A DNA stretch of 53,808 nucleotides from a virus (lineage: Duplodnaviria; Caudoviricetes). The translations under genes and the position numbers were made by a program. Positions within the stretch are counted from its first letter, which is position 1. Each line of letters starts with the position of its first letter. Of the stretch, positions 10,687 to 37,559 are shown piece by piece. Under the pieces are notes generated by a model that was not told where the DNA came from, did not search any database, and saw only the letters and a list, made by a program, of their open reading frames with translations. Location: positions 1-53,808 of IMG/VR virus record IMGVR_UViG_3300020294_000007; one strand, given 5' to 3'.

Positions 10687-13600
10687 ATGTCAGAAGCAGA
10701 GCAGTGGCTGGATTGGTTAGAGAATAATGAAGATTCTCCAGACTTCAATGAAGTAAGCACAGCCTTTCTACGAAAACGTGCTGGTGATAGAGAATTTGCA
10801 AACGAAGTCAATGCTATATTAGGTGAGCCTAAACCTGAACCTGAAAGAAGGCCCCGAAGAAGACCTGAAATAGTACCTGATCCTGAACCTGAAGCAAGAA
10901 CGCAAGCTTCAGTGGTACAACCTTTTGGTACTCAACCTACAGAACGTCTCGAAGAACCTACACTTACGTCTACCCCTGCTAGTCTCCCTGCTACAGATGA
11001 AGATGAGTTAAACGCTTTTGAACGGGGGCTAAAGTCCGGTAAAGATTACGGAGACCTAATGTTTGGTTCTGCTCTTGAAGGGGTGGGTAAAAAACTAGGT
11101 ATAGAAAGTCTTGTAGACTACGGGTTAGAGGTTCAACAATCTAACCAGACAGAGCTAGATAAAATACAAGGAGCCATGCTCACATTAGATGATGTAAATG
11201 ATGTGGGTAGCTTTGGAAGTTGGGCAGCACAGACCGTAGGACAAACTTTACCACTTACTGCAACTAGTATTGGTGCCGCAATTCTTGGTGCAAAAGCTGC
11301 TCCTATCTTAGGTGTAAGTGCTGGTATAGCTGGACTCGCTACAGCAGCAGGATCTCAAATACCTTTCTTCTATGGAGGCAACAGAGAAGCACAGAAAGAA
11401 GCCATATCCCAAGGATTAAGAACAGAAATGAGCGAAGGCGCGGCTCTTTTAACTGCTATCCCTCAAGCTACTCTCGATGTCTTTGCTGAAAAGCTCCAGT
11501 TAAGAGGGGCCGCTGATATTTTAGGTAATTTAATTAAAAGAGATGGAGGGCTTCTTACCAGAATAGGTAAAGGCGGGGTAAGGAGTTTAGGTAAAGGTGT
11601 AGTATCAGAAGTGCCTACTGAAGTGGGGCAGTTAGTGCTAGAAAAGGTCCAAGCAGGAGGGCTACAGAGTTTAAATAGTGATGAATTTGTAGATGAAGTT
11701 ATAGAAACAGCCGCAGCCGCAGCCCTAGTGGGTGAAAGTATTGGTGTTACCACAGGAGCCTTAGGTCTGGATAGGTCTCGATATGAGGCGGGTATAGACG
11801 AAGATGCGCGACTAGCTAGAATGTCAGAAGAAGAGAGAAATCTGTTAGATGACGAAATAGAAGAAGACATGTTAGCAGATGACGCGGTAGATGCAGCGTC
11901 TGAAGAAGAAATAGATGCAGAAAGAGAACGACAAAGAGCAGAGGAAAAAGAACGAAAGGAAGCCGAAGAAACCAAAGTTGCAGCCGAAATCACCGATGAA
12001 CAGGTAGCACAGGTAACAGGCGAAGAGGTAGCAGGTGGAGAAGGAATTGAGGGCACAGTTACAAAAAGCGGAGAAGGACCTGAAGGAGAAGCTGAGAGAA
12101 CAGACGATCAAAAAGTGGGAGAGGGTAGTGAGGAAGAAGTTAAGAAAGAAGATGACCTCGGATTGGAAGAAGCTAAAAAAGAACTAACTCAATTAAGACA
12201 AGAATGGAACGAGCTTACCGATAACGGTACTAAATCTCCTAATGATTATACTGATGAAGAAGCAGACAGAATAGAAACGATAGAAGGTAGAGTATACGAA
12301 ATAGACGCTTTTTATAACCGTGAAAACCTGCAAAAAGAAAAAGAAGTTACGAGTATAGTTGATGCGATTGAAGCTAAAAGCACAGATACTGGCACTGGTA
12401 CTGGTACTGTGGCTGCTGATGAAACTGGCGCTGGCCCTAAGGTGGATACAGAAAAACAAGATGCTCCTCCTGTTGATGCTTCTACCGATGCTCCTGCTAC
12501 TACCCCTCTTGTTGACGCAGAGTTAGCTAACAGACGAAAGAGTTTAAATGCGCGGCTAAATAAAGCTGAGAAGCTAGGCGCTGAGTCTGCAATAAGGCAA
12601 AGAACCGTAAAGGTAACACAAGAGTTTCTAGCTTCAGATGCCTCTAAAAATTTAACTGACAAACAGAGAGCAACACTTCAGGGTAAGCTAGAAAAACTAG
12701 TCAGTAAACCTACTAAGGGTCCCTCTGTTGCTTTTGAAAAAGATGCTCCTAAAAAGACGGATGAAACAAGAGAAACAGTCACTGAGGTGCTCGAAAAAGC
12801 ACAAAAACCCGTTAAAGGTGAGGCAGCAGCAAACTTTGCAGAAGCATCTCGTATTGCTGGAGAACGAAAGTCTGAAATTGCTCTGTCAGATATAGAGAAA
12901 AAGAAGTATGAAGAGGGCCTTGAGTTTGAGAAAGACGTTGCGGGAAACATAAAATTTCCAGAGGGGACATCTTTAAAAGAAAAAAGGATGCTAATTCAGG
13001 AAACTGAACAACAAATAAAACAGTCAAAAAAAGATCTTGCAAAAGTAAAAGCTAGTGAAGAAGCGGGTTTAGCTACTCCGGCTCCGCTTTTGAAAAAAAC
13101 TACAGAAAAAGATTTTGCAACAGATTCAGATAGAGTAGCTGCAACTAACCTACTAAAAACACAGATAAGTAAAAAAACAAAAAAGGGAAATGAAGAAAAG
13201 GCAAGAAACTATTTTGCAGGTATGGAGAGGGTAGAGGACGGTTTAGCTTTTCTAGCTTTTGATGTGGCTACAGACGCACCGGAATTTACCAGAAGTAGGA
13301 GTTTAACAGGTCAAGAAAATGCTTTGTTTAATAAGACAGGTGGTAGAAACGCCACAGAAGCAGATGCTTGGGTACGAGAAAATTTTGATAAATCAACGGT
13401 AGATAAATACGAAAGTCTTAAAGCAAATTACAAAGCAAGACTACAAAGAGGCACCCTAGCAGAAAAAGCCGAAAGTAGTTCTAAACTAAAAAGTTATTTT
13501 GCATACAAGGGCAAGGACAGAAAAGATCCTACAAACATAGTGCGCTCGTTAATTCAAGGAGAAGGCTATGTGATGAGCGCAGCAGATTTAGCCAAGGGTC

Positions 13601-16600
13601 CAGTGGACCGTCCAGTTACAGAACGAAGAGAAGCATTAACGGTAGACGATAAAAAATTACTAGCTGCCTTAGAAGCTGAACGAAAAAGAATAGAAGCTTT
13701 TAGAGAAAATGCAGACGTAGATAAAGAAGAAGTAAAAGCTGCTCTTAAAGCCATACTTGAAGCTAAAAAAAGAGTTAGAGCTATAAAAAAGAATTTACGC
13801 CCTGCGTCCAGAAAAATAGAAAAAAGAACAAGTGAAGCAGAAGAAGCCGCCCTTGGACCTACAAAAACTAGAGTTCCTTATGGTGGAACACCGGGAGGCA
13901 AACCATTTATAGCTTACATACCCCCTCCTGAACTTAAAAAAGCCCCAACACCACTTGGTCCTGAACGTAAACTTGTTTTGGGAGACGCAATATCCACAGG
14001 TGTTGGTGATATTACTATTGTTCCTGCTACTTTAGCCCTACCTGCAAATCTAGTTTCTGCATTAAATGCAACATTGAATCCGAGAATAATACAAGCGTTG
14101 CGGCAAGGAGATCTGCGGTTAGCACTGGGGCTGTTAGAAGGGTATGCCGATAACGTGTCCAAAGACAGTAAAGACTATTTTAAATTTATACAGGCTATCG
14201 CTGAAACGTTTCCTACAATGCTGGGCAACACAAAAGTTGAAATAGTAAATAACCTGAAGAATGAGGCTGGAGTAAGTGTAGCCGGGTTGTTTGATCCTAC
14301 AACTAATACTGTAAAACTAGATTCTGAACGAGGACTAAATACTCACGTATTACTGCACGAACTTACCCATGCGCTAACCAGTGCGACACTGGGAAATAAA
14401 TCTAATCCTGTTACTAAAGCACTGAAAAAGTTGTTTGAAGAAACTCGTGGTCTGTTAGACACCACCTACGGCACCTCAAGTTTAGATGAGTTTGTAGCTG
14501 AAGCCTTTAGTAATATGGAGTTTAGAAGCAAACTAGCTGCCCTATACCCCAAGAACAGCGCATCCAGTGCGTTTACCAAGTTTAAGAATCAAGTGCTTAG
14601 AATGTTAAACACTGTTTTAACGAAGGTAAATATAAAGGCCATAGAGCTAGACCCAGAAGTGGATGCCTCAGAAACTATTTTATCTAACGTAGGACGTTTA
14701 GCCAGTGCCATATTAGCTCCAGCCCCAGAAAGCAGGAACGCCACCGAGTTAGCCGCTGACCCCGAAAAGATAGTGGATAACTTAGAAAGTATTCAAGACC
14801 AGCTAATAAACAACAAAGGCATTACCCAAGCAGGTATTAGAGATAGGTTAAGGGAACTAACAAAGTCTTCAAGTGACCAAGTGTTTAACTTGTTAATGAG
14901 GTTTGTAGACAGCGCAGACGCGGCTTACATGGGTAGGTTTTTTGGGGAAGACGTAGCATTAAAAGCAAGAGAATTGTTTGAAACTTTATTAGAACAAAGA
15001 GGTGCTTTAGATAAAAAAGATAAACGAATAAAAAAGATAAACGCAGAGCACAGTAAATGGTACAGCAAAGTAGGGTATAAAGGTAAGCGTCTATTAGACA
15101 GGCTCATATACGACATTAATTTTGGAGCTACCATAACCGGAGTTGACCCTTTGTTTTCAAAAGACCAAGCTCTCGCTGCCTATGCAAATGACCCAACTGA
15201 AATAACCATAACAGAAGGTAAAGACGCTGCAGGGAAAGATATCGTAAAGACCGTTGACAAAATGTACATATGGAATAAACAACGTAGGTACGTAAACGAA
15301 TTAACTAAATTAAAAGCCGATAACCTTGACGGTATGAAAGTGTATACCGAGATGCGTGACTTTTATAAGCAACAATACTTAGACGCTGAAAAATCTATTA
15401 ATGTAAATTTAGACAATATATTAGGCGAAGATACCGCTTCAGAAGTAAAAAAAGATTTAATGAGTAAGTTGTTCGATAGAAAGTTGTTAGACGTATACTT
15501 TCCGTTAGCTAGAGAAGGTAAATATAAAGTGGTTTGGCACTCTATGCAACGAGAAGCAGAGGGTAAAGATCCTGTAATGATGGTAATGGTGGACACTGAA
15601 TCCCAAGCTAAAAGACTAGTTAAACAATTAAAAGCAGATAAAGCCAATGTTGACTCAACTAAAAACCCCTTTAAGGGTAGTGGGGTAGCAGGGCCACAGT
15701 ATTTTGAAGGAGAGTTTGATAGTAAATCCTTTGAAGATAATAGCCCCGCTAACTCAACAATGACTAAAATATTAAATAAAGTTGATGAGTTACCTAAAAC
15801 TGACGAAACTGAGACTTTAAAAGAAAACATCATGCAGTTGTATTTGCAGACGTTGCCTGAGACTTCATTTGCTCAAGCATTTCAAGCAAGAAAGGGCACA
15901 CCGGGGTATATAATAGACGCTAAGTACGCCTTCAATAGAAAAGCCTACGACATAGCAAGGCAGTCCACACGTATAGAATACGCACGAAAACTTAGAAATA
16001 TAGAAACTGATATAGGTAATCTAAAATATAGTGCTGATAGAGATGTAACTCAAAGCAAGTTTGGATTATTTAAACAAAGACTAATTGAAGACGCACAAAG
16101 TGGGTATAATCCTCCTTCGGGGTTTGGGACTCGCGTTTCAACATTATTGAATCAATTTGCATTTTTACAAACTATTTCATATAACGTGTCTTCTGCTGCG
16201 ATACAGACATTTCAAGTACCCTTTATAGTCTATACAGCGTTAGCGTCCAAGTACGGGTGGGGGAATGCCACTAAAGCAATATTACATGACGCTTCTGGGC
16301 TAGTGCTAACTTCATTTGATTTCGGGGATTCTAAAATACCTGAAGCAGGTATAGATACTTACTTTGATGTAACGCTGGATGCTAATAATAACGAAATATA
16401 TACATTAAAAGAAAAACATAAAAAAGGATTAAGTCCTTCAAAACTAAAAAAACTAGAAGACTTAGCCCCACTAGTAAAAGTAGCAGTAGACGGCAACCAA
16501 CTTAACAGAACTTTCTTTGCTGATGCTATGGGATTAGATGAAAGCGGTAGACCCATCGATGGAACTACAGGAAAACCCCAAGAACTTTGGCGTAATTTTA

Positions 16601-17838
16601 TGGGTCTTGGGGCTACAGTTTTTAACAGCGCAGACAGGTTTAACAGACAGGTTAGCATGGTAGCTTTTTATCAATTAGAGTTGAATAAGCTTAGAAAGGG
16701 CAAAAAGAACGCCAAACTAACCGAAGAACAAATGATACAAGCAGCAAGAGATGCTGTGTACGCGGCCACAGAAACTAATGGGGGCACGTTCATAGAAACA
16801 GGAGCACCCATATCAAAAGGCAATATTGGTCGAGTAGCTACTATGTACAAGACCTACGGTTTTAAAATGTATTTTCTGTTGTTTAAAAATTTCTTCAATA
16901 TGATTGGTAGATTTATACCGCCTGACGCTCCCAATAAAAAAGAAATACAAAAACAAGCAGCTACTATGTTTATGGGTAATACGCTTATGACTGCGGCTGT
17001 ATTGGGGGTACAAAGCACTTTTATATACGGGGCAGTTAAAGCTTTTGCGGCCTTACAAGATTTAATATCTGGAGAAGATGAAAATATAGATGAAAAATTA
17101 AGACAGGCTATGACAGAAGGTTTTTACAAAGGTGGATTAGTAGCATTGTCTGGAATAGATGTAACGAATCGAGCGCAGTTTAATGAACTGCTTCTCCAAA
17201 CTAATAAATACAATACCGTTGTAGATCCCGAACGATTTATATTTGAGCTTTTTGGAGGTCCGGCAGCAGGTACAGCCATAGACTTTTATGAAGGTCTGAG
17301 AGACGTAATAAAGCCTACTGGGAATAAAGTAGATTTAGAGCGTGGTATAGAAAAAATGCTACCCCCTGCATTTTCTAACATGTTTAAAGCCAGAGGGCGT
17401 TTAGCCAACGAAGGCTACCTTACTAGATCAGGTAACCCCGTGTATGAGGATGTATCTCAAGGCGAGTTAATCTTTCAGTTTTTTGGTTTCGCTCCTGCAG
17501 AGTATGTACGTAGGACAGAAGAAGCTTTAACTAGAAGAAAGATAGCTAAAAATATAATAACTAGACGAAGTGCATTAACGAAACAGTTAAACAACGCTTA
17601 CAGCCAAAATGATATGGCAGAGATACTTAAAGTAACCAGACGTATAACAAAATTTAACAAAGATGTAGGCCCCAAATATCCTGATGCAGTAATACTTCCT
17701 TCAGAAGAAGAAAATTCCAGAAAGTCTTTTTACAATGCTAAAACCAACGTTTATAACGGAGTTAGTCTGCCTCCTAAATTTGGTAGTGACATAGCCACTC
17801 AAATTAGATTTATGCAAGAAGCAGAAACAGAAGATTAA
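10687..17838 (+). CDS. Giant polyvalent-type virion/ejection protein with zincin metallopeptidase motif
   Basis: 2383 aa; LHELTHA...DEFVAEAF (HExxH plus downstream E); YFPLAREGKY resembles the PLxRFG domain signature; last gene of the structural arm. Confidence 0.7.
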   Translation: MSEAEQWLDWLENNEDSPDFNEVSTAFLRKRAGDREFANEVNAILGEPKPEPERRPRRRPEIVPDPEPEARTQASVVQPFGTQPTERLEEPTLTSTPASLPATDEDELNAFERGLKSGKDYGDLMFGSALEGVGKKLGIESLVDYGLEVQQSNQTELDKIQGAMLTLDDVNDVGSFGSWAAQTVGQTLPLTATSIGAAILGAKAAPILGVSAGIAGLATAAGSQIPFFYGGNREAQKEAISQGLRTEMSEGAALLTAIPQATLDVFAEKLQLRGAADILGNLIKRDGGLLTRIGKGGVRSLGKGVVSEVPTEVGQLVLEKVQAGGLQSLNSDEFVDEVIETAAAAALVGESIGVTTGALGLDRSRYEAGIDEDARLARMSEEERNLLDDEIEEDMLADDAVDAASEEEIDAERERQRAEEKERKEAEETKVAAEITDEQVAQVTGEEVAGGEGIEGTVTKSGEGPEGEAERTDDQKVGEGSEEEVKKEDDLGLEEAKKELTQLRQEWNELTDNGTKSPNDYTDEEADRIETIEGRVYEIDAFYNRENLQKEKEVTSIVDAIEAKSTDTGTGTGTVAADETGAGPKVDTEKQDAPPVDASTDAPATTPLVDAELANRRKSLNARLNKAEKLGAESAIRQRTVKVTQEFLASDASKNLTDKQRATLQGKLEKLVSKPTKGPSVAFEKDAPKKTDETRETVTEVLEKAQKPVKGEAAANFAEASRIAGERKSEIALSDIEKKKYEEGLEFEKDVAGNIKFPEGTSLKEKRMLIQETEQQIKQSKKDLAKVKASEEAGLATPAPLLKKTTEKDFATDSDRVAATNLLKTQISKKTKKGNEEKARNYFAGMERVEDGLAFLAFDVATDAPEFTRSRSLTGQENALFNKTGGRNATEADAWVRENFDKSTVDKYESLKANYKARLQRGTLAEKAESSSKLKSYFAYKGKDRKDPTNIVRSLIQGEGYVMSAADLAKGPVDRPVTERREALTVDDKKLLAALEAERKRIEAFRENADVDKEEVKAALKAILEAKKRVRAIKKNLRPASRKIEKRTSEAEEAALGPTKTRVPYGGTPGGKPFIAYIPPPELKKAPTPLGPERKLVLGDAISTGVGDITIVPATLALPANLVSALNATLNPRIIQALRQGDLRLALGLLEGYADNVSKDSKDYFKFIQAIAETFPTMLGNTKVEIVNNLKNEAGVSVAGLFDPTTNTVKLDSERGLNTHVLLHELTHALTSATLGNKSNPVTKALKKLFEETRGLLDTTYGTSSLDEFVAEAFSNMEFRSKLAALYPKNSASSAFTKFKNQVLRMLNTVLTKVNIKAIELDPEVDASETILSNVGRLASAILAPAPESRNATELAADPEKIVDNLESIQDQLINNKGITQAGIRDRLRELTKSSSDQVFNLLMRFVDSADAAYMGRFFGEDVALKARELFETLLEQRGALDKKDKRIKKINAEHSKWYSKVGYKGKRLLDRLIYDINFGATITGVDPLFSKDQALAAYANDPTEITITEGKDAAGKDIVKTVDKMYIWNKQRRYVNELTKLKADNLDGMKVYTEMRDFYKQQYLDAEKSINVNLDNILGEDTASEVKKDLMSKLFDRKLLDVYFPLAREGKYKVVWHSMQREAEGKDPVMMVMVDTESQAKRLVKQLKADKANVDSTKNPFKGSGVAGPQYFEGEFDSKSFEDNSPANSTMTKILNKVDELPKTDETETLKENIMQLYLQTLPETSFAQAFQARKGTPGYIIDAKYAFNRKAYDIARQSTRIEYARKLRNIETDIGNLKYSADRDVTQSKFGLFKQRLIEDAQSGYNPPSGFGTRVSTLLNQFAFLQTISYNVSSAAIQTFQVPFIVYTALASKYGWGNATKAILHDASGLVLTSFDFGDSKIPEAGIDTYFDVTLDANNNEIYTLKEKHKKGLSPSKLKKLEDLAPLVKVAVDGNQLNRTFFADAMGLDESGRPIDGTTGKPQELWRNFMGLGATVFNSADRFNRQVSMVAFYQLELNKLRKGKKNAKLTEEQMIQAARDAVYAATETNGGTFIETGAPISKGNIGRVATMYKTYGFKMYFLLFKNFFNMIGRFIPPDAPNKKEIQKQAATMFMGNTLMTAAVLGVQSTFIYGAVKAFAALQDLISGEDENIDEKLRQAMTEGFYKGGLVALSGIDVTNRAQFNELLLQTNKYNTVVDPERFIFELFGGPAAGTAIDFYEGLRDVIKPTGNKVDLERGIEKMLPPAFSNMFKARGRLANEGYLTRSGNPVYEDVSQGELIFQFFGFAPAEYVRRTEEALTRRKIAKNIITRRSALTKQLNNAYSQNDMAEILKVTRRITKFNKDVGPKYPDAVILPSEEENSRKSFYNAKTNVYNGVSLPPKFGSDIATQIRFMQEAETED

Positions 17839-28487: not shown

Positions 28488-28719
28488 ATAAACCCTCTTC
28501 GTTATTGATATTGTCGTACAATGTCTGTCGATAAACTCTTTGACAGCGACTAATAAAGTCAGTGTCTTCCCAGTTAGTGTTCCCTCTCACCCAACAGTCT
28601 CTTGCAACATGCATTTCTTCTACCAACCCTTCATCGTTAGCTGATATGTAAGCTTCTTTTTCATCTCGAAATGCAAACCTCCCAAGATGGTAGGCTCTTT
28701 GCCACAGTTGTTTATTCAC
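28480..28719 (-). CDS. Hypothetical protein
   Basis: Overlapping ORF in the operon, GGAGG upstream. Confidence 0.65.
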   Translation of the reverse strand: MNKQLWQRAYHLGRFAFRDEKEAYISANDEGLVEEMHVARDCWVRGNTNWEDTDFISRCQRVYRQTLYDNINNEEGLYE

Positions 28720-28897
28720 TTACAACCCTCCTCCAATATGTATTAAACAGCTTTTGATCTGCATGGCCTTGTGCATATTCTCTAAATCTAGTCTCTCGAC
28801 CTAGCTTTGAACGACACTCACCGCAGTAATTTTTATTCTGTCCTGTAAACTTTTCGGGGTCTTGCTCCCCACATAATTCGCAATAATGTTTCTTCAT
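28712..28897 (-). CDS. Small Zn-ribbon-like protein
   Basis: CELC and CGEC; GGGAG RBS. Confidence 0.65.
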   Translation of the reverse strand: MKKHYCELCGEQDPEKFTGQNKNYCGECRSKLGRETRFREYAQGHADQKLFNTYWRRVVSE

Positions 28898-28973
28898 CTG
28901 TCTCCCTAAGAGCTAAGTGCTACTAAACTGTAACCACACTTCAAAGTGTGACCACTGGTATCAACTTGCGGCA

Positions 28974-29293
28974 GGGGCAGGGCAACAAGCATGGCATGTT
29001 CCGAGCATCTGATGGAGCCGCCCTATTACTAAAGCGGCATACCCCCATTCAAAACCTCACTAGGGAAAATCCCTAGTTTCAATGTGGTGGTTGGTAATAT
29101 TAAGCCTCCATGAATAGGGAAAACTTGCAAAAACCCTTCGCCCGCGACTTGGCATACTACCTTTGGCTTCGAGGCCACCACTCCCCGAAAAGGATCAGCG
29201 GGCGAGATGTGGTGAATGTGTTGATGCGCTTAATACTTCAGGGGGGACGCATCAACACTCGCAGACTTCACCAAGCCTGTTCAACATGCCCCC
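28974..29293 (-). ncRNA. Candidate ~320-nt structured non-coding RNA
   Basis: Intergenic; 5' and 3' ends pair; several 8-11 bp internal stems, a GUAA-capped hairpin, and G-U pairs that form on the - strand. Confidence 0.55.
29060..29076. repeat. Dyad copy 1 CTAGGGA-AAA-TCCCTAG
   Basis: Read directly from sequence. Confidence 0.95.
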
Positions 29294-29521
29294 CTAGGGA
29301 CTAACAATATAAAATAAATTGTTTGTTAATTTATAACCTAGTCCTTCTATCTTTTCACCCTCGTTGAGAGATAAGACAGAAATACTTTCTCGTATGTTCT
29401 TAGGTAGGGAATCGAATGATGGGTATTCTTTGGTAACCGTTGGATTACAATCTAGATTGTCAACAGTTATGCAATCCTTTTTCGGATCAGCGTATACACG
29501 ATAATAGGTAGACAAACCCAT
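29294..29521 (-). CDS. Hypothetical protein
   Basis: AGGAG RBS; resembles the C-terminal part of the 29582..30640 product. Confidence 0.7.
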   Translation of the reverse strand: MGLSTYYRVYADPKKDCITVDNLDCNPTVTKEYPSFDSLPKNIRESISVLSLNEGEKIEGLGYKLTNNLFYIVSP

Positions 29522-29581
29522 AGTAATATTCGTAACTCCTACGTAACGAAGTTAAACCCTATCACTATGGGTTGTGCTTGT

Positions 29582-30640
29582 CTAGTTATATAGGTAAAAA
29601 AGATGTGGATTTAATTTAAAGCCTGTACCGACTTGCCCTGCCTTTAGTTCTTGGTCAGACACCATTTGTAGTATCGACATTTTCTGCGCCAGTTCAGTAG
29701 GGAAGTTTTCTTCTCCGTACACAAGGTGTTTGTCTATCTCTGCGTAAGAGTAATCCTTTGACTGCGATACATCAGCAACGTGTAATCTAGTTTCGTTTTC
29801 GATGTATACAACAGTAAACTTATTGCCCGAAGCTATGCCTTTACGATCAGCTTCATAATCTGTCAACGCCTTGAAGTCCTTGTACCAAGCCTCGGTGACA
29901 GGCATATAGTATTTGCCGTCTATCTTCTCGATAGAACGCATACCATGCTCAAAGTCTATGTGCTTCTGGATATCACGTTTTAGTCTACCTACTTGATCGT
30001 TATGCTCGTATTTAAACGAGTCTGCTTCTGATGATGCACTTCGGAAAGTATGGGCCACTACTTTTTCAAACGTATTTGGTACAACCCTTCTGCGTAGAGT
30101 ATGAAGTATCTTACTCTCATCCATAGTCTTGAAAACATGTACGTTATGAGGGGCACGTTCCTTCTGTATGTTCGGAGTGTATAAGCCAAGGTATTGTTTA
30201 TCGGAATCTAAATGTCTTGCTATCTCTAAACGTGCAGATGCGTAGGGGCCACTAAAGTGTATAAGCATAGCCGACATATTTTTACTCATACTCACTGTTG
30301 CATCCGAGAACACAGGGTCTCTCAACACCTCAAAAACTAGTGCAGGTAATGGTACGTAAGAGGTCCAAGCATCAGATGTGGTTCTGGCTCCCTGTGCCTC
30401 TAGCCTCCAAGGATTAATATCCTCATTACGCCCGAGACGAGTTATACCATCACTACCTAAGGTCCAATCCCAGAATCGTTGAATCATAGCAGTCCAATTC
30501 GGTGCAGTCCTCGCATCTTCTGGAGTCATCGTAAAGCACTCATCATCTTTGGGTGAATACAAATCCCACATCCTATTGTTGTACTCGCAATATACTTTTT
30601 GCATTTTAGTCATCCTTACTAGTTTTAAATTTAGTGACAA
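29582..30640 (-). CDS. Hypothetical early protein
   Basis: 352-aa ORF; true start may be ATG 30613. Confidence 0.7.
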   Translation of the reverse strand: MSLNLKLVRMTKMQKVYCEYNNRMWDLYSPKDDECFTMTPEDARTAPNWTAMIQRFWDWTLGSDGITRLGRNEDINPWRLEAQGARTTSDAWTSYVPLPALVFEVLRDPVFSDATVSMSKNMSAMLIHFSGPYASARLEIARHLDSDKQYLGLYTPNIQKERAPHNVHVFKTMDESKILHTLRRRVVPNTFEKVVAHTFRSASSEADSFKYEHNDQVGRLKRDIQKHIDFEHGMRSIEKIDGKYYMPVTEAWYKDFKALTDYEADRKGIASGNKFTVVYIENETRLHVADVSQSKDYSYAEIDKHLVYGEENFPTELAQKMSILQMVSDQELKAGQVGTGFKLNPHLFYLYN

Positions 30641-30824
30641 TATTAAAAATTACAGTTGGCAACACTTCACATTCTGTTTCCCAATCCTTGTTATTAGTAG
30701 TGAACCAATCGCCATTATGATCTTTAACGTACATTAGTAGCCTCCCTCCCTTAGGGTCTTGAGCTTTAAAACCCTCGCCACCAAAGACATCTCCATAAGA
30801 AATAACGTCAATAGTTTTATTCAT
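30606..30824 (-). CDS. Hypothetical protein
   Basis: AGGAGG RBS. Confidence 0.7.
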   Translation of the reverse strand: MNKTIDVISYGDVFGGEGFKAQDPKGGRLLMYVKDHNGDWFTTNNKDWETECEVLPTVIFNIVTKFKTSKDD

Positions 30825-30876
30825 GCTACTTTTTCCTCCTTTATTGTGGGTTTAAGACGTACCTAAAACCCGTTAG

Positions 30877-30907
30877 TTCAAATACTAGTTAGGGAAATTC
30901 CCTAGTG
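30877..30907. repeat. Dyad copy 2 with extended arm TTCAAATACTAGTTAGGGAAATTCCCTAGTG
   Basis: Abuts the stop of 30908..32020. Confidence 0.95.
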
Positions 30908-32020
30908 TCATTTTGGTTTACCGACAACTTCCTCGACCAAGTAGTTGAGTCCAAGCCACTCGTTCATAAAACGATTGAACTGAGACCGTATCTTCTGCGC
31001 TTGCTTCTTGTCAGCATCGTAAGCCATGTTCTTCACTCTGCGTAACAAAGAGTTGCGCTCCATGAAAAAGTACAAGAGAGCCAGCCTATGTTCATTACTA
31101 GTATTAGTAACAACATCGGTAGCTTTTTCTTGATTGTATATGTGCAATGCCGAATCGAAGTGTCCATAAGCATCTCGCTCGCCTTTGATATACTCTTCGA
31201 GATCTGCCACGTACTCTCGACATACTTTCCAATCATCAGACACAAAGGGTGCGTAGGTCACTAGATACTGCCAGTAGTTTTCAATCGCATCTTTGTACTC
31301 TTTCTTCCTTTCAATGTTTGTGCGCTTGCGTGTCGCATACTCTGTTCCGCCCCCACTCACGTACTTGAGCGCATCGTACTCTTTCTGTGTCGGGCTACTA
31401 CCACTAGTTCTGGTACGCTCGAACACAAGCGTCATCGAATCTCTTGAACCCTTTGAGTGCTCTTTGGGTCTCGGTATATAGATAGACTCAAAGGGTTTCT
31501 TGTGAACAACATTGGGATAATCATCAGTTGCCACGCCCACATCTACGTACAGTTTGCCCTGTCGAGACTCGCTCACACGTAACGGATCAGGTACGCAAAA
31601 ACGTAGCGTAGCGGTTCGCCAGTTAACGTAATGCTCGACAGAGTGATAGCGAATACCTACCGATTCTACGTTACGCTCGGGATCATACCGCCAAACGATA
31701 GGAGCAAGGAACACCATGTCATCTATCATCTCTTTGGTAAAATCTAGTTCTGAAGTCCTATTCTCTGCTTCAGTGTGGAAGTACCCATGCGGATCGCCAA
31801 GCCCCCCATCAAGGAGCACGTAGGTGTTCTCGTCTACCTTGCGTACCTTGTGTACCTTGTTGCTACGGTTAAAGATAGGACGTATGTTTCTCGACTTACC
31901 AAGCCCACCTCTTTCATGGATTGGTTTGATCTGTTCATACATCTCTTGCATACCCGTGAATGAATTGAATTTTTGGCTTAGAGCATTGCTCGAAGTCCAT
32001 TGAAGTTCATGTGTTGCCAT
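30908..32020 (-). CDS. Hypothetical early protein
   Basis: 370-aa ORF, AAGGAG RBS. Confidence 0.75.
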   Translation of the reverse strand: MATHELQWTSSNALSQKFNSFTGMQEMYEQIKPIHERGGLGKSRNIRPIFNRSNKVHKVRKVDENTYVLLDGGLGDPHGYFHTEAENRTSELDFTKEMIDDMVFLAPIVWRYDPERNVESVGIRYHSVEHYVNWRTATLRFCVPDPLRVSESRQGKLYVDVGVATDDYPNVVHKKPFESIYIPRPKEHSKGSRDSMTLVFERTRTSGSSPTQKEYDALKYVSGGGTEYATRKRTNIERKKEYKDAIENYWQYLVTYAPFVSDDWKVCREYVADLEEYIKGERDAYGHFDSALHIYNQEKATDVVTNTSNEHRLALLYFFMERNSLLRRVKNMAYDADKKQAQKIRSQFNRFMNEWLGLNYLVEEVVGKPK

Positions 32021-32021
32021 A

Positions 32022-32186
32022 CTAGTTCTCCTTACAATCTAGTTTTAAGTTTTTGTAGTTAGGGTAGATGCCCTCGCATACGTCACGCTTGTACGCTTGT
32101 TCAGCTACCAATTCGTCTTGGTAGTCCATGTTGTTGACAATAAGAAATGCCACCAGAACCCCCAAAAATATAATCAACTTGTCCAC
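32022..32186 (-). CDS. 54-aa membrane-anchored protein (MDKLIIFLGVLVAFLIV...)
   Basis: Not in the track; GGAGG RBS, GTG start, N-terminal TM segment, two Cys. Confidence 0.65.
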   Translation of the reverse strand: MDKLIIFLGVLVAFLIVNNMDYQDELVAEQAYKRDVCEGIYPNYKNLKLDCKEN

Positions 32187-32212
32187 CCTACATCCTCCGT
32201 TGTTTAGTGTGT

Positions 32213-32241
32213 TTCAAATACTAGTTAGGGAATTTCCCTAG
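32213..32241. repeat. Dyad copy 3 with extended arm
   Basis: TTCAAATACTAGTTAGGGAATTTCCCTAG; contains the TAG stop of 32238..33458. Confidence 0.95.
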
Positions 32242-33458
32242 TCGTCAATGTAAACCGACTTACCGATTGTGGGTCTGGCACTCGGGTTACCTGCGATACA
32301 CCACAACACAGGGCAGTCCCAGTTCCCCCAGCCACCGTACAGTTCACCGTCCGTCAGGACCGCACAAGCTGTAGGTCTGATACCGTTCGCTTGTAGGTAA
32401 GTGGGCACACAACGTACATCAGTACCACCCGCACCTTTGGGCTTGATCTGTTGCATTACCAGATCTACATTGTCTAGCTCGTCCTGCAAGAATGTCTGAT
32501 GTCCTGCGACCTCGGTGTCCCACCACACAATGTGTAGTTTTGTCGGGCGTAGTGTCATCAGTATCTTCTTGAACTCACTGAGCCATTGACCTAGTAAGTG
32601 ATAGCACGACCCAGACATGTCAGGAGCCAAGACTAGTTCGTCTAACCTCTCGCTCAGACTGGTCGGCATGTACACACCTTGACCCAAGTGTCTGCGATTG
32701 GGCTTGGCCCAAGTACAGAAGTCTTTACCCGCCATCACTTGTCGCGTCCAGTCCTGCGCTACCTTCTCCCACGGAACCTTGGGTGTAACTAGTTCCTGTA
32801 GTGATCGGTTAGTCTGAAGGCCCAGTTTTCCTGCGGTCATCATACCCTGCCGTACCGCACTCTCTAGCTCGCGTGCGATCTCTTCCTGCTCCACAGAATC
32901 TAGTTCTTGAGCGCCTTCGTGGTCGTGGTCATCGAAACCCTCTCCGAAACCCTCGCCTTCTTCTTGTCGCTTGCGTATGTCCCAGAAGATCTTGGGTATG
33001 TCCCAGCCCTTGTACTGCGGATCTGCGTAGCCGCCTTCGGGCATGACTGCAAACCCATCGGGCCACCGCATACGTGCATTGGCTACGTTAGCCATGATCC
33101 ACTCGTTCTCTGCGATAAGCTGTAGATTGATCCAATGGTCACTAGCAATACCTGCCGCCTTTGCATCCATTTTGAATAGATAATCTAGTAGGAATAAGTG
33201 CTTACCTAGCTTGTGATAGTTCTCATGCAGTATCAGGAATCGATACTCTGCGTCACTCATTGCTGAGATAAACTCCTCACCGTAGACAACATCTCTACCA
33301 TTGGTACACGCGGTAAAGGGCAATGGCTCGGGGACCACAGAACTAGTCCCCAACATCAGCACACCTGCTAGTGGTACATAGATATCTACACTAGTGATAT
33401 CACTCACGCATTTCTGTAGGCGTTGGCCTACTGTTAGTTGTTGATTAAGACTCAGCAT
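32238..33458 (-). CDS. Metallopeptidase-VWA protein (DUF2201-like)
   Basis: TACTNG, LHENYH (HExxH), MIDAS DMSGS...GGTD...LTDG. Confidence 0.85.
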   Translation of the reverse strand: MLSLNQQLTVGQRLQKCVSDITSVDIYVPLAGVLMLGTSSVVPEPLPFTACTNGRDVVYGEEFISAMSDAEYRFLILHENYHKLGKHLFLLDYLFKMDAKAAGIASDHWINLQLIAENEWIMANVANARMRWPDGFAVMPEGGYADPQYKGWDIPKIFWDIRKRQEEGEGFGEGFDDHDHEGAQELDSVEQEEIARELESAVRQGMMTAGKLGLQTNRSLQELVTPKVPWEKVAQDWTRQVMAGKDFCTWAKPNRRHLGQGVYMPTSLSERLDELVLAPDMSGSCYHLLGQWLSEFKKILMTLRPTKLHIVWWDTEVAGHQTFLQDELDNVDLVMQQIKPKGAGGTDVRCVPTYLQANGIRPTACAVLTDGELYGGWGNWDCPVLWCIAGNPSARPTIGKSVYIDD

Positions 33459-33587
33459 CTAGTTAACCTCCTCTGGATCTTCATCTACCGAAAAATGAAT
33501 TTTTATGGTTTCTACCTCGTCTTCAAGTCCGATCCAATCGTCACTTGGACAAGTGTTCATCCACTCCCAAAATTCTGATCTTGTCAT
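33459..33587 (-). CDS. 42-aa acidic protein (MTRSEFWEWMNTCP...)
   Basis: Not in the track; GAGG RBS, fills the gap between the AAA and VWA genes. Confidence 0.6.
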   Translation of the reverse strand: MTRSEFWEWMNTCPSDDWIGLEDEVETIKIHFSVDEDPEEVN

Positions 33588-33591
33588 CTAG

Positions 33592-34686
33592 TTAGCCTCG
33601 CTTGTCTGCTGTAAACATGTGTTTGTGTTGATCTGCGAACTCCATGAACTTGGCGTTGTTCATCACCACCGCTTGCTTCGGGTGCTTGGGTGAACGTATG
33701 CCGTTCAGGAAGTACGACTTAGCTTCTTCGGGTAGCCGCCATGAGTAGGCCACCCACGCATCGACCCAATCACGCTCGATGTTCTGCAACGTGCGATAGA
33801 CCGTCATCAGTGTGGCACTCGCGCCTGTCGGAATACGTGCTGTAGTGGGTGAGTCCTTGATGTCCTTGATAGACGGAAGGTCACTCATCAACTTGCTGTA
33901 GTTGAATAGCTCCGAGCCACCCATCGGGCCAAGCGTACCGACCAATGCCGCCTCCATAGACTGTGAATCTAGTTGGTCAGCTTTGTGCATCCAGTGGGAT
34001 GCGAACTCAAGAGAACGTGGTGTGACGAACGCATCTTGTTGTCGCTCTGGATGGTAGATGTACTGGTTGTCATCAGGTGATACGTCCTCGAAAGATTGGA
34101 ATAGCTGTGGGTTCTCCGCAACCCAAGAAGATACTGCGTAGTGAATCCCTGCGCCCTGCGCCCACTCTACCCACTCGATGTGCGTTGGTTTGCGTAGTCG
34201 TATTCGGGTCATCCTGTTGCGTTGATGCGGTAGCAATACATCACCTAGTCCCTCACCATCTAGGTTCGATGTGAGAAACACGATAGAGTCAGGGTGTAGC
34301 TCCTTGTCTCCGATCTTGTGTTCGTAAACTAGTCTTAGCAATGCGTTCTTGACTGACACGTTAGACTTCTTGTACTCGTCAACCATGATAACCAACGGCT
34401 TCTCCAAGTGAATGCCAAGCTCTGCGTTAGTCGCACAAGTGAAGTAGTCTTGTCCGTCTACCTCCTTGAACTTGGGTATCCAGATGTCGCCAACGTCCTT
34501 GGTCGTGCAATCGAAGTAGCACATAACGTGCGTATCCTTCAGTGTCTCACCTAGTGTGTCTAACAGAGCCGACTTGCCTGTGCCCATGTCGCCCTCTACC
34601 ATCACACTACCTTGTCTACCAAAGGCCAATATCATCTTAGCCGCTTGGTCGTGACTTACTGCATAAGTTCTTTGTTGTACCTGCAT
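33592..34686 (-). CDS. MoxR-like AAA+ ATPase
   Basis: Walker A GDMGTGKS, Walker B IMVDE, TSN, NR, TPRS motifs; next to the VWA gene. Confidence 0.85.
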   Translation of the reverse strand: MQVQQRTYAVSHDQAAKMILAFGRQGSVMVEGDMGTGKSALLDTLGETLKDTHVMCYFDCTTKDVGDIWIPKFKEVDGQDYFTCATNAELGIHLEKPLVIMVDEYKKSNVSVKNALLRLVYEHKIGDKELHPDSIVFLTSNLDGEGLGDVLLPHQRNRMTRIRLRKPTHIEWVEWAQGAGIHYAVSSWVAENPQLFQSFEDVSPDDNQYIYHPERQQDAFVTPRSLEFASHWMHKADQLDSQSMEAALVGTLGPMGGSELFNYSKLMSDLPSIKDIKDSPTTARIPTGASATLMTVYRTLQNIERDWVDAWVAYSWRLPEEAKSYFLNGIRSPKHPKQAVVMNNAKFMEFADQHKHMFTADKRG

Positions 34687-34703
34687 TTCTGTTCTCCTAA
34701 ATA

Positions 34704-34734
34704 TTCAAATACTAGTTAGGGAAATTCCCTAGTG
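34704..34734. repeat. Dyad copy 4 with extended arm
   Basis: 31 bp identical to copy 2; abuts the stop of 34735..35754. Confidence 0.95.
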
Positions 34735-35754
34735 TTATTGTGGAAGTACATTAAGTACTTTGTTTATAGCGTCAATTAGTTCGGAACGTAACCGACTGCT
34801 ATCTCGTAGCGCATCTACTGTCATGCGCTGTAATCTCTCTTCTAGTGCCGATCTGCATAGCTCTAAGTTCGGGTCATCACCGAAACTGAAGTGCTTGAGC
34901 ATCTGCACTACTTCTAGGGTCCTGTCGATCAAGGTATTGTGAAACCCTGTAGGTGTTTGTTTGTCCCCGTAATCTAGCTTGGACTTTGTTTCTGTAAGTC
35001 TAGTTCTCACATCAGAGTAAACACGTACCATCATGTCTCGGTTCTGATCGTGGTAGTAGTCCTTGTAGCTCTGCTTGAGATACTCTTTCATCTCTTCCCC
35101 GACTTGTAGCCGAAAGTCGCTGTCGTCCTCTGGCTTGGGTAGCGGTATGAACGCAAGCTTGAAACTGAACTTCTCTCGTAGCGATCCAAGACTAGGATAG
35201 TCATCTCGATTGAACAGTCTGCCCAGACCGCTGGACGATGACTGCGCTTTCTCTTCTGCCATGTCTACTGCGGCAGAGTAGCCGTCCAGTAGGTTCTGCA
35301 CCTCGGTGTAATACTCTGCCTTGAACGCCTCCAGTGCTTGTCTAGCATCTAGTAGTGACGTTGCGGGTATGATGCGCGGTCCACGATCTAGCCAAGGTTT
35401 AGAGACTCTGTTGAGATAATCTCTCGCATCGGACTTGATCGATTTGATGCGCTTGAGGTGTGGATTGTCTGACAGTAGGTACTTGTCAACACCGATCTTC
35501 CTCGCATCTGCATCTACTTGGTGGGCGTAGTTCTGTGTGGCTCGTTTGTCTTTCTTCCTGCCCTCCCACATGCAGATGTTTACGTGGCATAGCCGTGCAT
35601 GAGTGTGCATAGATACATCAACTAGTTCTGGCTCTTGTTGGTTGGTAGGTCGTGTTGGTTCTGGAACTGCCGTTACCTCGGCTTGTGCCTGTGGTACACT
35701 AACTACTGGTGCGCTTACATCGTGTTTCTTTTGTAGGTCATCTAGTAAACCCAT
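34735..35754 (-). CDS. Hypothetical early protein (possibly DUF3150-like)
   Basis: WEGRKKD, PW.D.G.RI, LFNRDDYPS...KF motifs. Confidence 0.6.
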   Translation of the reverse strand: MGLLDDLQKKHDVSAPVVSVPQAQAEVTAVPEPTRPTNQQEPELVDVSMHTHARLCHVNICMWEGRKKDKRATQNYAHQVDADARKIGVDKYLLSDNPHLKRIKSIKSDARDYLNRVSKPWLDRGPRIIPATSLLDARQALEAFKAEYYTEVQNLLDGYSAAVDMAEEKAQSSSSGLGRLFNRDDYPSLGSLREKFSFKLAFIPLPKPEDDSDFRLQVGEEMKEYLKQSYKDYYHDQNRDMMVRVYSDVRTRLTETKSKLDYGDKQTPTGFHNTLIDRTLEVVQMLKHFSFGDDPNLELCRSALEERLQRMTVDALRDSSRLRSELIDAINKVLNVLPQ

Positions 35755-35767
35755 AGTCGTTCTCCAT

Positions 35768-35803
35768 GTTGTCGCTAGGGAAATTCCCTAACTAGTTTTT
35801 GAA
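35768..35803. repeat. Dyad copy 5, extended arm in inverted orientation
   Basis: GTTGTCG-CTAGGGAAATTCCCTAACTAGTTTTTGAA. Confidence 0.95.
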
Positions 35804-35842
35804 ACAGTATTGTTTTTCAAGCGAAACTCCACTCGAAATACT

Positions 35843-35871
35843 ATTATCTCATATGTTAGTATTGAAGTCAA
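35843..35871 (-). promoter_or_regulatory. Sigma70-like early promoter
   Basis: - strand TTGACT-N17-GATAAT with a TG extension. Confidence 0.6.
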
Positions 35872-35904
35872 ACCTTTAACTTGAGTGGGTAAACGTGCTT
35901 GAAC

Positions 35905-36282
35905 GTATAATGTTCTTAGTAAACGTCTATTGTTCTTACAATGTAGTGACCTAACTAATTGATAAAAAAGGAATGTTCTAATGTTCGGTTTTTGACGAAG
36001 AGAAGAGAGAGAAAATGTGAAACTAGATTTGAGTAGAAAATAGAACAATAGGAAGAGAGGTCTGAAGTAAGTATCCTCTCTTTTTTAAAAAGCGAACATT
36101 ATAAATTAAGATTATTAGTTTATATATATATAAGTACATTTAATAAAGTTTAATTAATAAGAATACTAACACTTGATAACGCTTGGGTAGGTTTACAATG
36201 TTCGTTTTTCATTTTCAAAAAGCGAACAATGCAGTATTTTAGCGAACATTAGGGGGATTTTGCGAACATTACACCGAACATT
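35905..36282. other. Putative replication origin (iterons plus AT-rich core)
   Basis: About 11 GAACA(T/A)T motifs in both orientations around a very AT-rich stretch at 36100-36170. Confidence 0.55.
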
Positions 36283-36283
36283 A

Positions 36284-36300
36284 CTAGGGAGATTCCCTAG
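36284..36300. repeat. Dyad copy 6 CTAGGGA-GAT-TCCCTAG
   Basis: Read directly from sequence. Confidence 0.95.
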
Positions 36301-36306
36301 TTGCGT

Positions 36307-36461
36307 CTTGAAGCTATGTGCATCTACGATCACTGGTTTCATTTTGAAGGCTAGGGAGATTCCCTAACTAGTTCTTGAGATGGTGGGGATAGTTTGAAGG
36401 CTACCAAGTTTTTGGTAGGAGGAAGACTTGAAGCTATGTGCATCTACGATCACTGGTTTCA
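36307..36461. repeat. 35-bp exact direct repeat x2
   Basis: CTTGAAGCTATGTGCATCTACGATCACTGGTTTCA at 36307-36341 and 36427-36461. Confidence 0.95.
36351..36378. repeat. Dyad copy 7 with inverted extended arm
   Basis: CTAGGGAGATTCCCTAACTAGTTCTTGA. Confidence 0.95.
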
Positions 36462-36477
36462 AAGGGGCCGTAGCCCC
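36461..36477 (-). terminator. Hairpin with C(UACG)G loop after the 36484 gene
   Basis: - strand GGGGC-TACG-GCCCC-TTT. Confidence 0.55.
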
Positions 36478-36483
36478 ATGAAA

Positions 36484-36729
36484 CTAACCATCGTTTTCTG
36501 TGATGTTTGGGAGATCGAAGTTAAAACTCTCTTGCCCAGATGGGAGACTAACTACTCGGGTTCCCTGTATTGCAAACTCCTCTAATCTTTCCAGTAGATC
36601 TTTCCGTTGTTGTTTTGTTATTCCGACTCGTTCTCTTGCAATCAACGTATAGAGTATTGATGTAGGAACAGCGGTGTAACCAATGTAACCGTGATAGGTT
36701 TTGAATTGAAATGTTGTTTGGTCATTCAT
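36484..36729 (-). CDS. Hypothetical protein
   Basis: GAGGA RBS. Confidence 0.7.
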   Translation of the reverse strand: MNDQTTFQFKTYHGYIGYTAVPTSILYTLIARERVGITKQQRKDLLERLEEFAIQGTRVVSLPSGQESFNFDLPNITENDG

Positions 36730-36745
36730 TTTTAGATCCTCTAAT

Positions 36746-36773
36746 AAAAAAAGAAGGGACCCCGTAGGGTCCC
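36746..36773 (-). terminator. Intrinsic terminator
   Basis: - strand GGGACCC-TACG-GGGTCCC-TTCTTTTTTT. Confidence 0.8.
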
Positions 36774-36782
36774 AAGATGTGA

Positions 36783-36799
36783 CTAGGGAAATTCCCTAG
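36783..36799. repeat. Dyad copy 8 CTAGGGA-AAT-TCCCTAG
   Basis: Lies 4 nt after the stop of the 36804 gene. Confidence 0.95.
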
Positions 36800-36803
36800 C
36801 AAG

Positions 36804-37436
36804 TTACTCAGAGATCAGAGTCTTTGTTTTCTCTAACTCTTTAGCAAGTTGCATGCCCACGTTGAGCCAATCGCGTAGTTCACTGTTCTGATCCGCGCAT
36901 AGGCTCTCAGCATACTTGAACTTATTGCTAGTTTGCGCCGCCTTTCTAGCCTTTTCCGCCTCGGCTATAGCCTTGAGCAATCGCTCATGTGGTGGATTGG
37001 CTACTCGCGCGCCGCCCTGCTTGATTGACTCGGCTTTGTTAAACCTAGTCTTCATAGCATTACGGAAGTCTTTCATGGCGGTCCCTTTCTGATCCTGCCA
37101 GTACTTGCAATTAGCTTTGGTAAAGGCCAGTTTGCCTTCGCCTTCACCGTTTAGCCTAGGATCGTCTTGCTTAAGGTAGGCCATAATGAAACCCTCTTTC
37201 GGGAATTTCTGTTTACAGATAGTATCCTTAAGCCTGCCTAGAAAGGCCTCAGACAAGATCGCGTCTTTGCCTTTGTTCTTGGCGGTGCTGACTAGTAGAT
37301 CCTCTAGTCCTGCTCCCATGTCTACTAACTGCTGATATAGCTGATCCGCTACTTCGCTAGCCTTCGCGCCGAACTCAGTGAATTGGCGGGTGAGTGACAA
37401 GAACAAGTCTTGTCCTTTCTTTGTAAATGAACTCAT
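36804..37436 (-). CDS. First gene of the early arm, hypothetical protein
   Basis: Start moved to ATG 37436 (MSSFTKK) with an AAGGA RBS; has its own promoter and terminator. Confidence 0.7.
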   Translation of the reverse strand: MSSFTKKGQDLFLSLTRQFTEFGAKASEVADQLYQQLVDMGAGLEDLLVSTAKNKGKDAILSEAFLGRLKDTICKQKFPKEGFIMAYLKQDDPRLNGEGEGKLAFTKANCKYWQDQKGTAMKDFRNAMKTRFNKAESIKQGGARVANPPHERLLKAIAEAEKARKAAQTSNKFKYAESLCADQNSELRDWLNVGMQLAKELEKTKTLISE

Positions 37437-37490
37437 AATGAGTATCCTTTGTTGGTTTACTGCCTCGGCCCCTTGCCGAAACATGACTAA

Positions 37491-37518
37491 ACTTTAGCAT
37501 ACTTTTCGGATCTCGCAA
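37491..37518 (-). promoter_or_regulatory. Sigma70-like promoter (extended -10)
   Basis: TTGCGA-N16-TAAAGT with TGn before the -10. Confidence 0.5.
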
Positions 37519-37535
37519 TACAATGCTTCCCTTGA

Positions 37536-37559
37536 CTAGGGAATTTCCCTAGCGACAAC
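37536..37559. repeat. Dyad copy 9 CTAGGGA-ATT-TCCCTAG plus CGACAAC
   Basis: Shares a 23-bp inverted identity with copy 5. Confidence 0.95.

Follow-up and report, generated by a model that had tools for sequence, protein, structure and literature searches.

The window, that is, the whole stretch of 53,808 nucleotides that was analysed, is an IMG/VR virus contig (53.8 kb) of an estimated completeness of 88%, and even its closest cultured relatives have a family-A DNA polymerase that is just about 34% identical at the amino-acid level. A 396-nt gap on the minus strand extends from the stop of a 75-aa ORF (29294) to the start of a 61-aa ORF (28897), both located on the minus strand. The latter opens the replication block, which comprises, in this order, genes for an SNase-like nuclease, VRR-NUC, PolA, PD-(D/E)XK, an SNF2 helicase, a Gp2.5-like SSB and a primase-helicase. 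The GC content of the gap is 0.49-0.53, versus 0.34-0.42 in the flanks. Neither a tRNA nor a tmRNA was called by ARAGORN anywhere in the window, and the promoter and terminator scan of the gap revealed no terminator-like site and no sigma-70 promoter within 28600-29700. For a neighbouring 352-aa protein, no relatives were found in IMG/VR. The features of the gap and its borders are as follows, with the type of evidence given in brackets.

29294-29521, minus strand: 75-aa ORF on one side of the gap
29192-29293, minus strand: leader after the 75-aa ORF, with the hairpin 29218-29228/29248-29258(60) (unconserved)
29084-29190, minus strand: module A, predicted H-type pseudoknot RNA (R1 covariance model and covariation)
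29183-29190 with 29167-29174, minus strand: helix P1 of module A, 8 bp (covariation)
29182, minus strand: L1 of module A, a single A
29175-29181 (GUGGUGG) with 29084-29090 (CCACCAC), minus strand: helix PK of module A (covariation)
29162-29164, minus strand: A-rich linker of module A (structure model)
29154-29161 with 29093-29100, minus strand: helix P2 of module A (covariation)
29151-29153 with 29104-29106, minus strand: helix P3 of module A (structure model)
29107-29150, minus strand: variable apical part of module A (structure model)
29060-29076, no strand assigned: dyad copy in the A-B spacer (CTAGGGAnnnTCCCTAG; 7-bp stem, 3-nt loop), one of nine copies in 29060-37552
28974-29045, minus strand: module B, predicted 72-nt three-helix junction (R2 covariance model and covariation)
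29040-29045 with 28974-28979, minus strand: terminal helix P-a of module B, GGGGUA/UGCCCC (covariation)
29030-29038 with 29017-29025, minus strand: helix P-b of module B, 9 bp, capped by GUAA (GNRA) at 29026-29029 (covariation; a hairpin already seen in an earlier note on this DNA)
29004-29016, minus strand: 13-nt junction strand of module B (near-invariant)
28983-29003, minus strand: hairpin P-c of module B with bulged GG (covariation)
28980-28982, minus strand: unpaired CCC of module B (conserved)
28898-28973, minus strand: trailer from module B to the start of the 61-aa CxxC ORF (unconserved; no terminator or promoter called; folding z = -0.48)
28712-28897, minus strand: 61-aa CxxC ORF on the other side of the gap, first of the replication block

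Structure of the two RNA modules

The search for relatives of PolA in IMG/VR found at least 599, and 80 loci were kept. The gap sequence matched seven of these 80 PolA-linked loci, in two blocks only. Further copies were collected by pattern scans and with the covariance models R1 (module A) and R2 (module B). Chance and coding matches of the loose pattern scans (L094/L095 and most of one scan) were discarded by eye or by covariance model, as were 15 of the 39 contexts of a junction-core scan, which R2 did not accept. As judged from this comparison, the minus strand of the gap encodes two RNA modules that fold independently of each other, first A and then B. Phages carry them together or singly, and both predicted folds are kept by compensatory changes.

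Model R1 matches positions 29081-29193 of the window with 69 bits (E 7e-13). The hairpin loop of P1 comprises eight nucleotides, one A and GUGGUGG, the latter seven pairing with the 3′ tail of the module and enclosing the P2/P3 domain. Loop 3 consists of an optional hairpin, the A-rich linker, the 8-bp P2, a conserved internal loop (mostly GAAGU opposite CA/GA), P3 and a variable tip. In alignment A3 (MAFFT, 12 sequences), 99.6% of the cells are paired and double changes are seen in 11 of the 23 pairs. None of 500 shuffles was as good, a count on an alignment that is not to be read as a probability, and slid partners were paired in 29-52% only (27-55% across the module alignments). Alignment A7, which is mostly independent of A3, contains 18 distinct sequences and was fitted to the model, a procedure that favours the model's structure; 99.8% of its cells are paired, P1 and PK are 100% paired, and double changes occur in 15 of 26 pairs, among them 6/7 in PK, 6/8 in P2 and 2/8 in P1. 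The pairing of PK is kept despite divergence, as GUCACAG/CUGUGAC in L070 and GUAACUG/CAGUUAC in L096. In 27 of the 28 distinct copies L1 has one nucleotide and L2 none. Module A is thus a predicted H-type pseudoknot, both stems of which are supported.

Model R2 matches module B of the window with 84.4 bits (E 1e-18). Its 13-nt junction strand is barely variable, reading UCAACCGGAUGCU in general and UCCAUCAGAUGCU in the window. Alignment A6 of 27 distinct variants has 96.3% of its cells paired and double changes in 12 of the 22 pairs; P-a is invariant there because the search pattern had fixed this helix. A scan for the junction core only, followed by R2, gave 24 matches with 17 distinct sequences. 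In alignment A8 (17 distinct sequences, P-a not fixed), 96.7% of the cells are paired and 15 of 22 pairs show double changes, P-a covarying in three of six pairs by G-C to U-A or A-U replacement. A mutual-information scan added columns 43/66 as a pair, with C-G in 20 variants and U-A in the other seven. The minimum free energy (MFE) fold of the window's copy is identical to the covariation fold. U-rich flanks are present on both sides of B, and a T-run follows 12 of the 27 variants; the copy in the window is followed by TGCCGCAAGT and lacks a T-run. Two further pairings were tried and rejected. A mini-hairpin in the junction of B would engage columns 36/43, which do not covary, and it is 43/66 that covary; pairing of the junction strand (CGGAUGC) with GCAUCCG of module A is possible in the L083 type, absent in the window type and irrelevant for solo copies of B.

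Compensatory changes were found in every helix of both modules. The assignment to the minus strand made in the earlier note was right, because on the plus strand the conserved G-U pairs, among them the U-G of P-a that all 27 of 27 variants have, would read A-C. Its expectation of an undescribed ncRNA also agrees with the strong compensatory variation and with the database searches. No Rfam 15 family reached its gathering threshold anywhere in the window, just two chance-level matches (E ~7) were obtained within 28600-29700, the modules in 11 homologous loci had no Rfam match at E<=1, and no riboswitch model of Rfam matched the window or the modules. Resemblances to tRNA, tmRNA, RNase P RNA, T-box, HDV-like, pistol, hammerhead and c-di-GMP-I RNAs were dropped after hand mapping and the lack of Rfam matches; the earlier note had likewise recognised no tRNA, tmRNA or RNase P RNA. 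A small protein-coding ORF was rejected as well. No conserved ORF covers either module: ORFs of 50 and 64 aa match the near-identical L225 only, and short ORFs over B match on both strands, confined to the 72 nt.

The earlier note had interpreted positions 28974-29293 as one large structured ncRNA of about 320 nt, with paired ends and an internal pseudoknot. The complementary segments listed there exist, including 29218-28/29248-58 (11/12 bp), 29138-45/29198-205, the terminal pairing and the GUAA hairpin 29017-38 in the MFE fold, and inspection by eye located the complementarity of the 9-bp stem and of the 9-bp pseudoknot. The minus strand of the 320 nt is more stable than its shuffles (z = -2.82; 0/100 equally stable), with z = -2.19 for the plus strand. 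Folded piecewise, the leader hairpin has z = -2.42 and the dyad hairpin z = -2.56; for the two conserved modules the z-scores, which ignore pseudoknots, are -1.07 and +0.28. The energy signal comes mostly from the unconserved leader and dyad hairpins and not from the conserved RNA.

Of the helices proposed, the GUAA hairpin, identical to P-b of module B, is the sole one backed by homologs. Covariation pairs 28974-28979 with 29040-29045 in P-a and places 28984-28990 within P-c, so that the 3′ strands needed for closing the proposed RNA are engaged in other helices, and the 8-bp stem, the 9-bp stem and the suggested pseudoknot cross or overlap P2, PK and P-a. The 11-bp stem is a real local hairpin, but it belongs to the leader (29192-29293), for which no homolog was found among all compared loci except L225. 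Position 28974 is the exact 3′ end of module B; the other end, 29293, is unconserved. The conserved structured RNA is present, but as two separable modules with an unconserved leader and a dyad-bearing spacer. The 5′ third of the proposed RNA has no homolog beyond the near-identical contig, A and B are found apart in other contigs, and the closing-helix positions 29287 and 29288 are changed in a relative from an RNA library, X18, whose module B is not covered. Despite the terminal pairing of the MFE fold and its low z-score, the model of one 320-nt RNA is contradicted by the comparative data and is extremely improbable.

In the X18 contig, which is 94% identical to the window, most changes fall in the loop of the leader hairpin, and one stem change produces a G-U pair. 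The spacer between A and B differs between contigs, L083 having none and L004 another hairpin; the dyad stands after A in L003 and before A in L070. The dyads constitute a 17-nt family, CTAGGGAnnTTCCCTAG, in which 7 bp of stem enclose a loop of 3 nt, and several members have the flank ACTAGTWTTTGAA in common. Nine sites were found over both strands (at 29060, 30889, 32225, 34716, 35775, 36284, 36351, 36783 and 37536), versus 0.12 expected. Most of them lie 20-200 nt upstream of early-gene starts and could be phage promoters, operators or processing hairpins. An RNA-library strain variant alters both arms of a dyad symmetrically (CTAG..CTAG to TTAG..CTAA). The gene-poor 1-kb stretch 35760-36810 contains four dyads, several GCGAACATTA-like repeats and a 35-nt exact direct repeat (36307-36341 = 36427-36461); an origin or a control region may lie here. 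A 2383-aa ORF (10687-17838, plus strand) matches solely giant PHROG families of unknown function; if it were a virion RNA polymerase, for which it is a candidate only, hairpin promoters would suit.

Distribution and genomic contexts of the modules

The presence of the modules is patchy: R1 matched 16 of 90 sources, and R2 matched six of 80 (the window and 79 PolA-linked loci). Where A and B occur together, the order is always A then B, with a variable spacer of 0-45 nt. Solo copies of A were found in L099/L104/L107, where a terminator and the SNF2 gene follow, in L007 and L070, where an RBS and a gene follow, and in L003, where it is the dyad that follows. Solo copies of B are carried by L140, L157, L170 and L180. 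In L140, a sigma-70-like TTGACT-17-GATAAT is located about 90 nt upstream, followed by B, T6, an RBS and ATG, and in L073 module B stands after a different, unrelated 5′ region. Two syntenies are observed, one upstream of the replication block, as in the window, and the other between PolA/PD-(D/E)XK and the SNF2 helicase. The genes downstream of the modules are unrelated across contexts.

No copy was found among GenBank phages (50,697 records), whether the query was the 396-nt gap, a stretch of 7 kb or B as it occurs in L240. Among prokaryotes, represented by one genome per species, an exact pattern for B had no matches and an exact pattern for A had two (L218 and L219), which R1 did not confirm; exact patterns miss diverged copies. 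RNA-library contigs from four marine runs overlap the element. Those of X17 cover 28999-29276 and nothing else of 28700-29600 (901 nt), and those of X16 and X18 cover parts; the uncovered parts of this interval and the small word shares of X16-X20 carry no evidential value. This coverage is a weak hint at expression and uninformative about RNA ends, as it consists of contigs only and DNA carry-over is possible.

The L225 segment 3047-3739 is 98.8% identical to 28908-29600 of the window over the upstream gene and the whole RNA region. The two sequences diverge about 65 nt after B, where L225 has another downstream gene, and the site looks like a recombination junction at the module border. GC-rich and hairpin-rich sequences take the slot of A (L073:5182-5466 type) and the slot of B (L003:3313-3459) and may be further RNA modules. 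A CCCGUCC...GGCGGG hairpin with a T-run is common to L073, L096, L143 and L170.

Several copies of B are located in tRNA arrays. In L253/L245, the order is tRNA-Leu, tRNA-Arg, 4 nt, B (69 nt), 8-9 nt and tRNA-Met; in L240/L237, tRNA-Leu, tRNA-Arg, 4 nt and B are followed by a terminator-like hairpin; and L236/L239 contain a short A, then B, 7 nt and tRNA-Glu. Besides, L096:3388-3457 (minus strand) matches the tRNA model with 50.9 bits. The anticodon loop of this match is shortened, its CCA is encoded, and A begins about 22 nt further downstream; ARAGORN did not call it. Adjacency to tRNAs is a minority context, seen in six of the 63 loci scanned with ARAGORN, in three arrangements, and by Rfam in L096. 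Only in L253, L245, L240 and L237 does B have the placement of a tRNA-like gene, being tRNA-sized, closed by a terminal helix and situated on the same strand a few nucleotides away from a tRNA; the window is without tRNAs.

Elsewhere B nearly fills intercistronic gaps, with 7/13 nt after the stop and before the start in L221, 18/29 in L228 and 27/27 in L255, distances that rest on crude ORF calls. In L083, L128, L146 and L099, the same terminator hairpin (GCGUGUAGUGGACAYCCACUUCGCGC and a T-run) follows either A alone or B. It sits 10-20 nt before the next gene start, and an RBS and the gene then follow with no space for a promoter. As this terminator abuts the next gene, the latter would therefore be expressed by read-through only.

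Possible role of the modules

A function of the modules must fit tRNA arrays, tight intercistronic gaps and 5′ leaders, which favours small RNAs that are cut out over a gene-specific riboswitch. It seems, tentatively and with a probability of roughly 0.4, that A and B are small RNAs processed from longer transcripts and acting as punctuation elements. Both modules would be transcribed within a polycistronic RNA running from the early to the replication genes and cut out at their borders, as tRNAs are from arrays. Nucleases of the host that process RNA may do the cutting: the flanks, being U-rich, are reminiscent of RNase E sites, and RNase P might accept a terminal helix as large as that of a tRNA. 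The recognition of B by RNase P is conjectural, because B has no T-loop and is recognised neither by ARAGORN nor by the Rfam tRNA model. Candidates for the cutting agent are thus RNase E and RNase P of the host, besides self-cleavage of the RNA. The products would be small stable RNAs of ~72 nt and ~107 nt, and the cuts may in addition act as punctuation where the early genes give way to the replication genes. In module B, the strong conservation of the unpaired core suggests either an active site or a specific partner; the near-invariant unpaired nucleotides (CCC, bulged GG and 13-nt junction strand) may form a surface that binds a protein or RNA partner.

Another explanation is a cis-acting attenuator or antiterminator, riboswitch-like or modifying RNA polymerase, in which the folding of A and/or B sets read-through into the replication genes. 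It agrees with the position of the RNA between the early and replication genes in the window, with the L140 arrangement of a promoter-like sequence, B, T6, RBS and ATG, and with the strong terminators that leave no promoter space in L083, L128, L146 and L099. It keeps some weight because T-runs and terminators follow many copies, namely the T-runs directly after 12 of 27 B variants, which are also compatible with a terminator role, and the terminators after L099-type copies of A. However, B has a tRNA gene on either side in L245/L253 and is the last element of a tRNA operon in L240, some neighbours being tRNAs and the downstream genes unrelated, and in the window B lacks a T-run and no terminator was called. 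A junction of 60 nt with a closing helix of 6 bp also makes a poor intrinsic terminator, and for the window's B this identity was rejected, as TGCCGCAAGT follows it and no terminator-like site was found in 28600-29700. Competition of the 3′ strand of PK with a downstream terminator or RBS was rejected too, with partial complementarity in L099 and L007 and none in L070. The attenuator is on the whole doubtful, and the cis-acting early-to-middle switch suggested in the earlier note fits poorly to a module that occurs inside tRNA arrays and ahead of many unrelated genes. It is about as doubtful that B represents a new class of tRNA-sized non-tRNA RNAs, either a ribozyme trimming tRNA trailers and separating cistrons or a decoy or mimic for a host tRNA-handling or tRNA-targeting defence factor, and that A is a second new class, a pseudoknot teaming with B.

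One or both modules might be new self-cleaving ribozymes that cut the polycistronic or tRNA-array transcript, as functional analogues of theta ribozymes. Most new conserved motifs are not ribozymes, no Rfam ribozyme model matches, and by hand mapping the helix order fits neither the HDV-like, the pistol nor the hammerhead core. The small size of the modules, the near-invariant junction nucleotides, the many unrelated intergenic phage contexts, the presence of two different motifs side by side and the start of B 4 nt after a tRNA 3′ end speak for this explanation, as does the clustering of self-cleaving ribozymes near one another and near phage genes (PMC10085705, in the portion available) and the placement of theta ribozymes at phage tRNAs (PMC10879173, likewise in part). 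It is nevertheless rather unlikely. Selfish or merely recombinogenic DNA modules, shuffling as cassettes at gene borders with an RNA fold incidental to their spread, would account for the patchy distribution, for the variable position relative to PolA, for the divergence of L225 about 65 nt after B following identity with the window through the RNA, and for the other modules in the same slots of L073 and L003. Compensatory changes and strand-specific G-U pairs, however, indicate selection on a folded transcript or single strand and not just on DNA, and no transposase, endonuclease or clear target duplication was seen, which makes such cassettes very unlikely.

Few structured RNAs of unknown function have been described from phages, and more than once such RNAs opened up new biology, for instance ribozymes beside tRNAs and giant RNA assemblies. 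Modules A and B are two compact motifs with clean covariation, strongly conserved unpaired cores and lego-like modularity that recur in uncultured marine phages, and B occupies tRNA gene slots though it is not a tRNA. They bear on how early and replication transcripts are punctuated and on what else phage tRNA arrays contain.

Comparison with known structured RNAs

The identity of B as a tRNA (RF00005), a cloverleaf that has a D-arm, an anticodon loop of 7 nt and a T-loop, was rejected. ARAGORN calls only the flanking true tRNAs in L236-L253, and the Rfam tRNA model scores these at 52-70 bits and B not at all at E<=1. According to covariation, a 9-bp GNRA hairpin and a 13-nt unpaired strand stand where the D and anticodon arms would be. 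HDV-like and theta ribozymes are nested double pseudoknots (P1, P1.1, P2, P3 and P4), in which P1 starts at the cleavage site and J4/2 carries a catalytic C. An HDV-like or theta identity was rejected by hand mapping for both modules, and no HDV-type match was obtained with Rfam: the covarying helices of B are two hairpins closed by a terminal helix; A has 0 nt between the 5′ strand of PK and the 3′ strand of P1, which leaves no P3 hairpin there. In the pistol ribozyme, the loop of the P1 hairpin pairs with the P2-P3 internal loop, the 3′ partner being inside P2. The P1 loop of module A instead finds its 3′ partner outside P2, 2 nt beyond the 3′ strand of that helix, and no pistol match was obtained with Rfam; this identity was rejected, too.

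The autoregulatory mRNA pseudoknot of T4-family gene 32 is of the H-type and has coaxial stems; its loop 1 is a single nucleotide that spans a stem 2 of 7 bp, and loop 2 is missing. Module A resembles it in the 1-nt loop 1, the 7-bp stem 2, the lack of loop 2 and the location among replication genes. It differs in having a P2/P3 domain of 80-150 nt in loop 3 and in standing often beside B or terminators, and it shows no link to an SSB gene; in the window, the gene for the Gp2.5-like SSB lies at a distance of 7 kb. The stable 'species 1 and 2' RNAs of T4 (rnaC/rnaD) are non-tRNA RNAs in the T4 tRNA cluster that are presumably processed with the tRNAs. The placement of B in tRNA arrays is similar to theirs, their sizes being different.

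The GOLLD and ROOL RNAs are often located near tRNA genes. They are 5-10 times larger than A and B, which have no Rfam match. Like A and B, they are phage-borne, richly structured RNAs of unknown function (PMC12286853, in the part available). Theta ribozymes, which are minimal HDV-like ribozymes, lie within ±5 nt of gut-phage tRNAs and also at isolated positions, and a role in cutting tRNA-containing transcripts has been suggested for them in the accessible part of the source (PMC10879173). Like them, B is a small structured RNA a few nucleotides from phage tRNA genes that also occurs solo between genes, but it is a plain three-helix junction and not a nested double pseudoknot, and it is marine and not from the gut. 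In the literature, no description of A or B was found; sequence motifs are not text-searchable, and the catalogue of candidate structured RNAs from IMG/VR by Fremin, Bhatt and Kyrpides (2023, PMC10690425), of which part was available, may include them. As far as that part goes, the catalogue lists 10,006 unnamed motifs, some of them tRNA-like (PMC10690425). Modules A and B share with these motifs the IMG/VR source and the character of covarying intergenic elements of uncultured phages.
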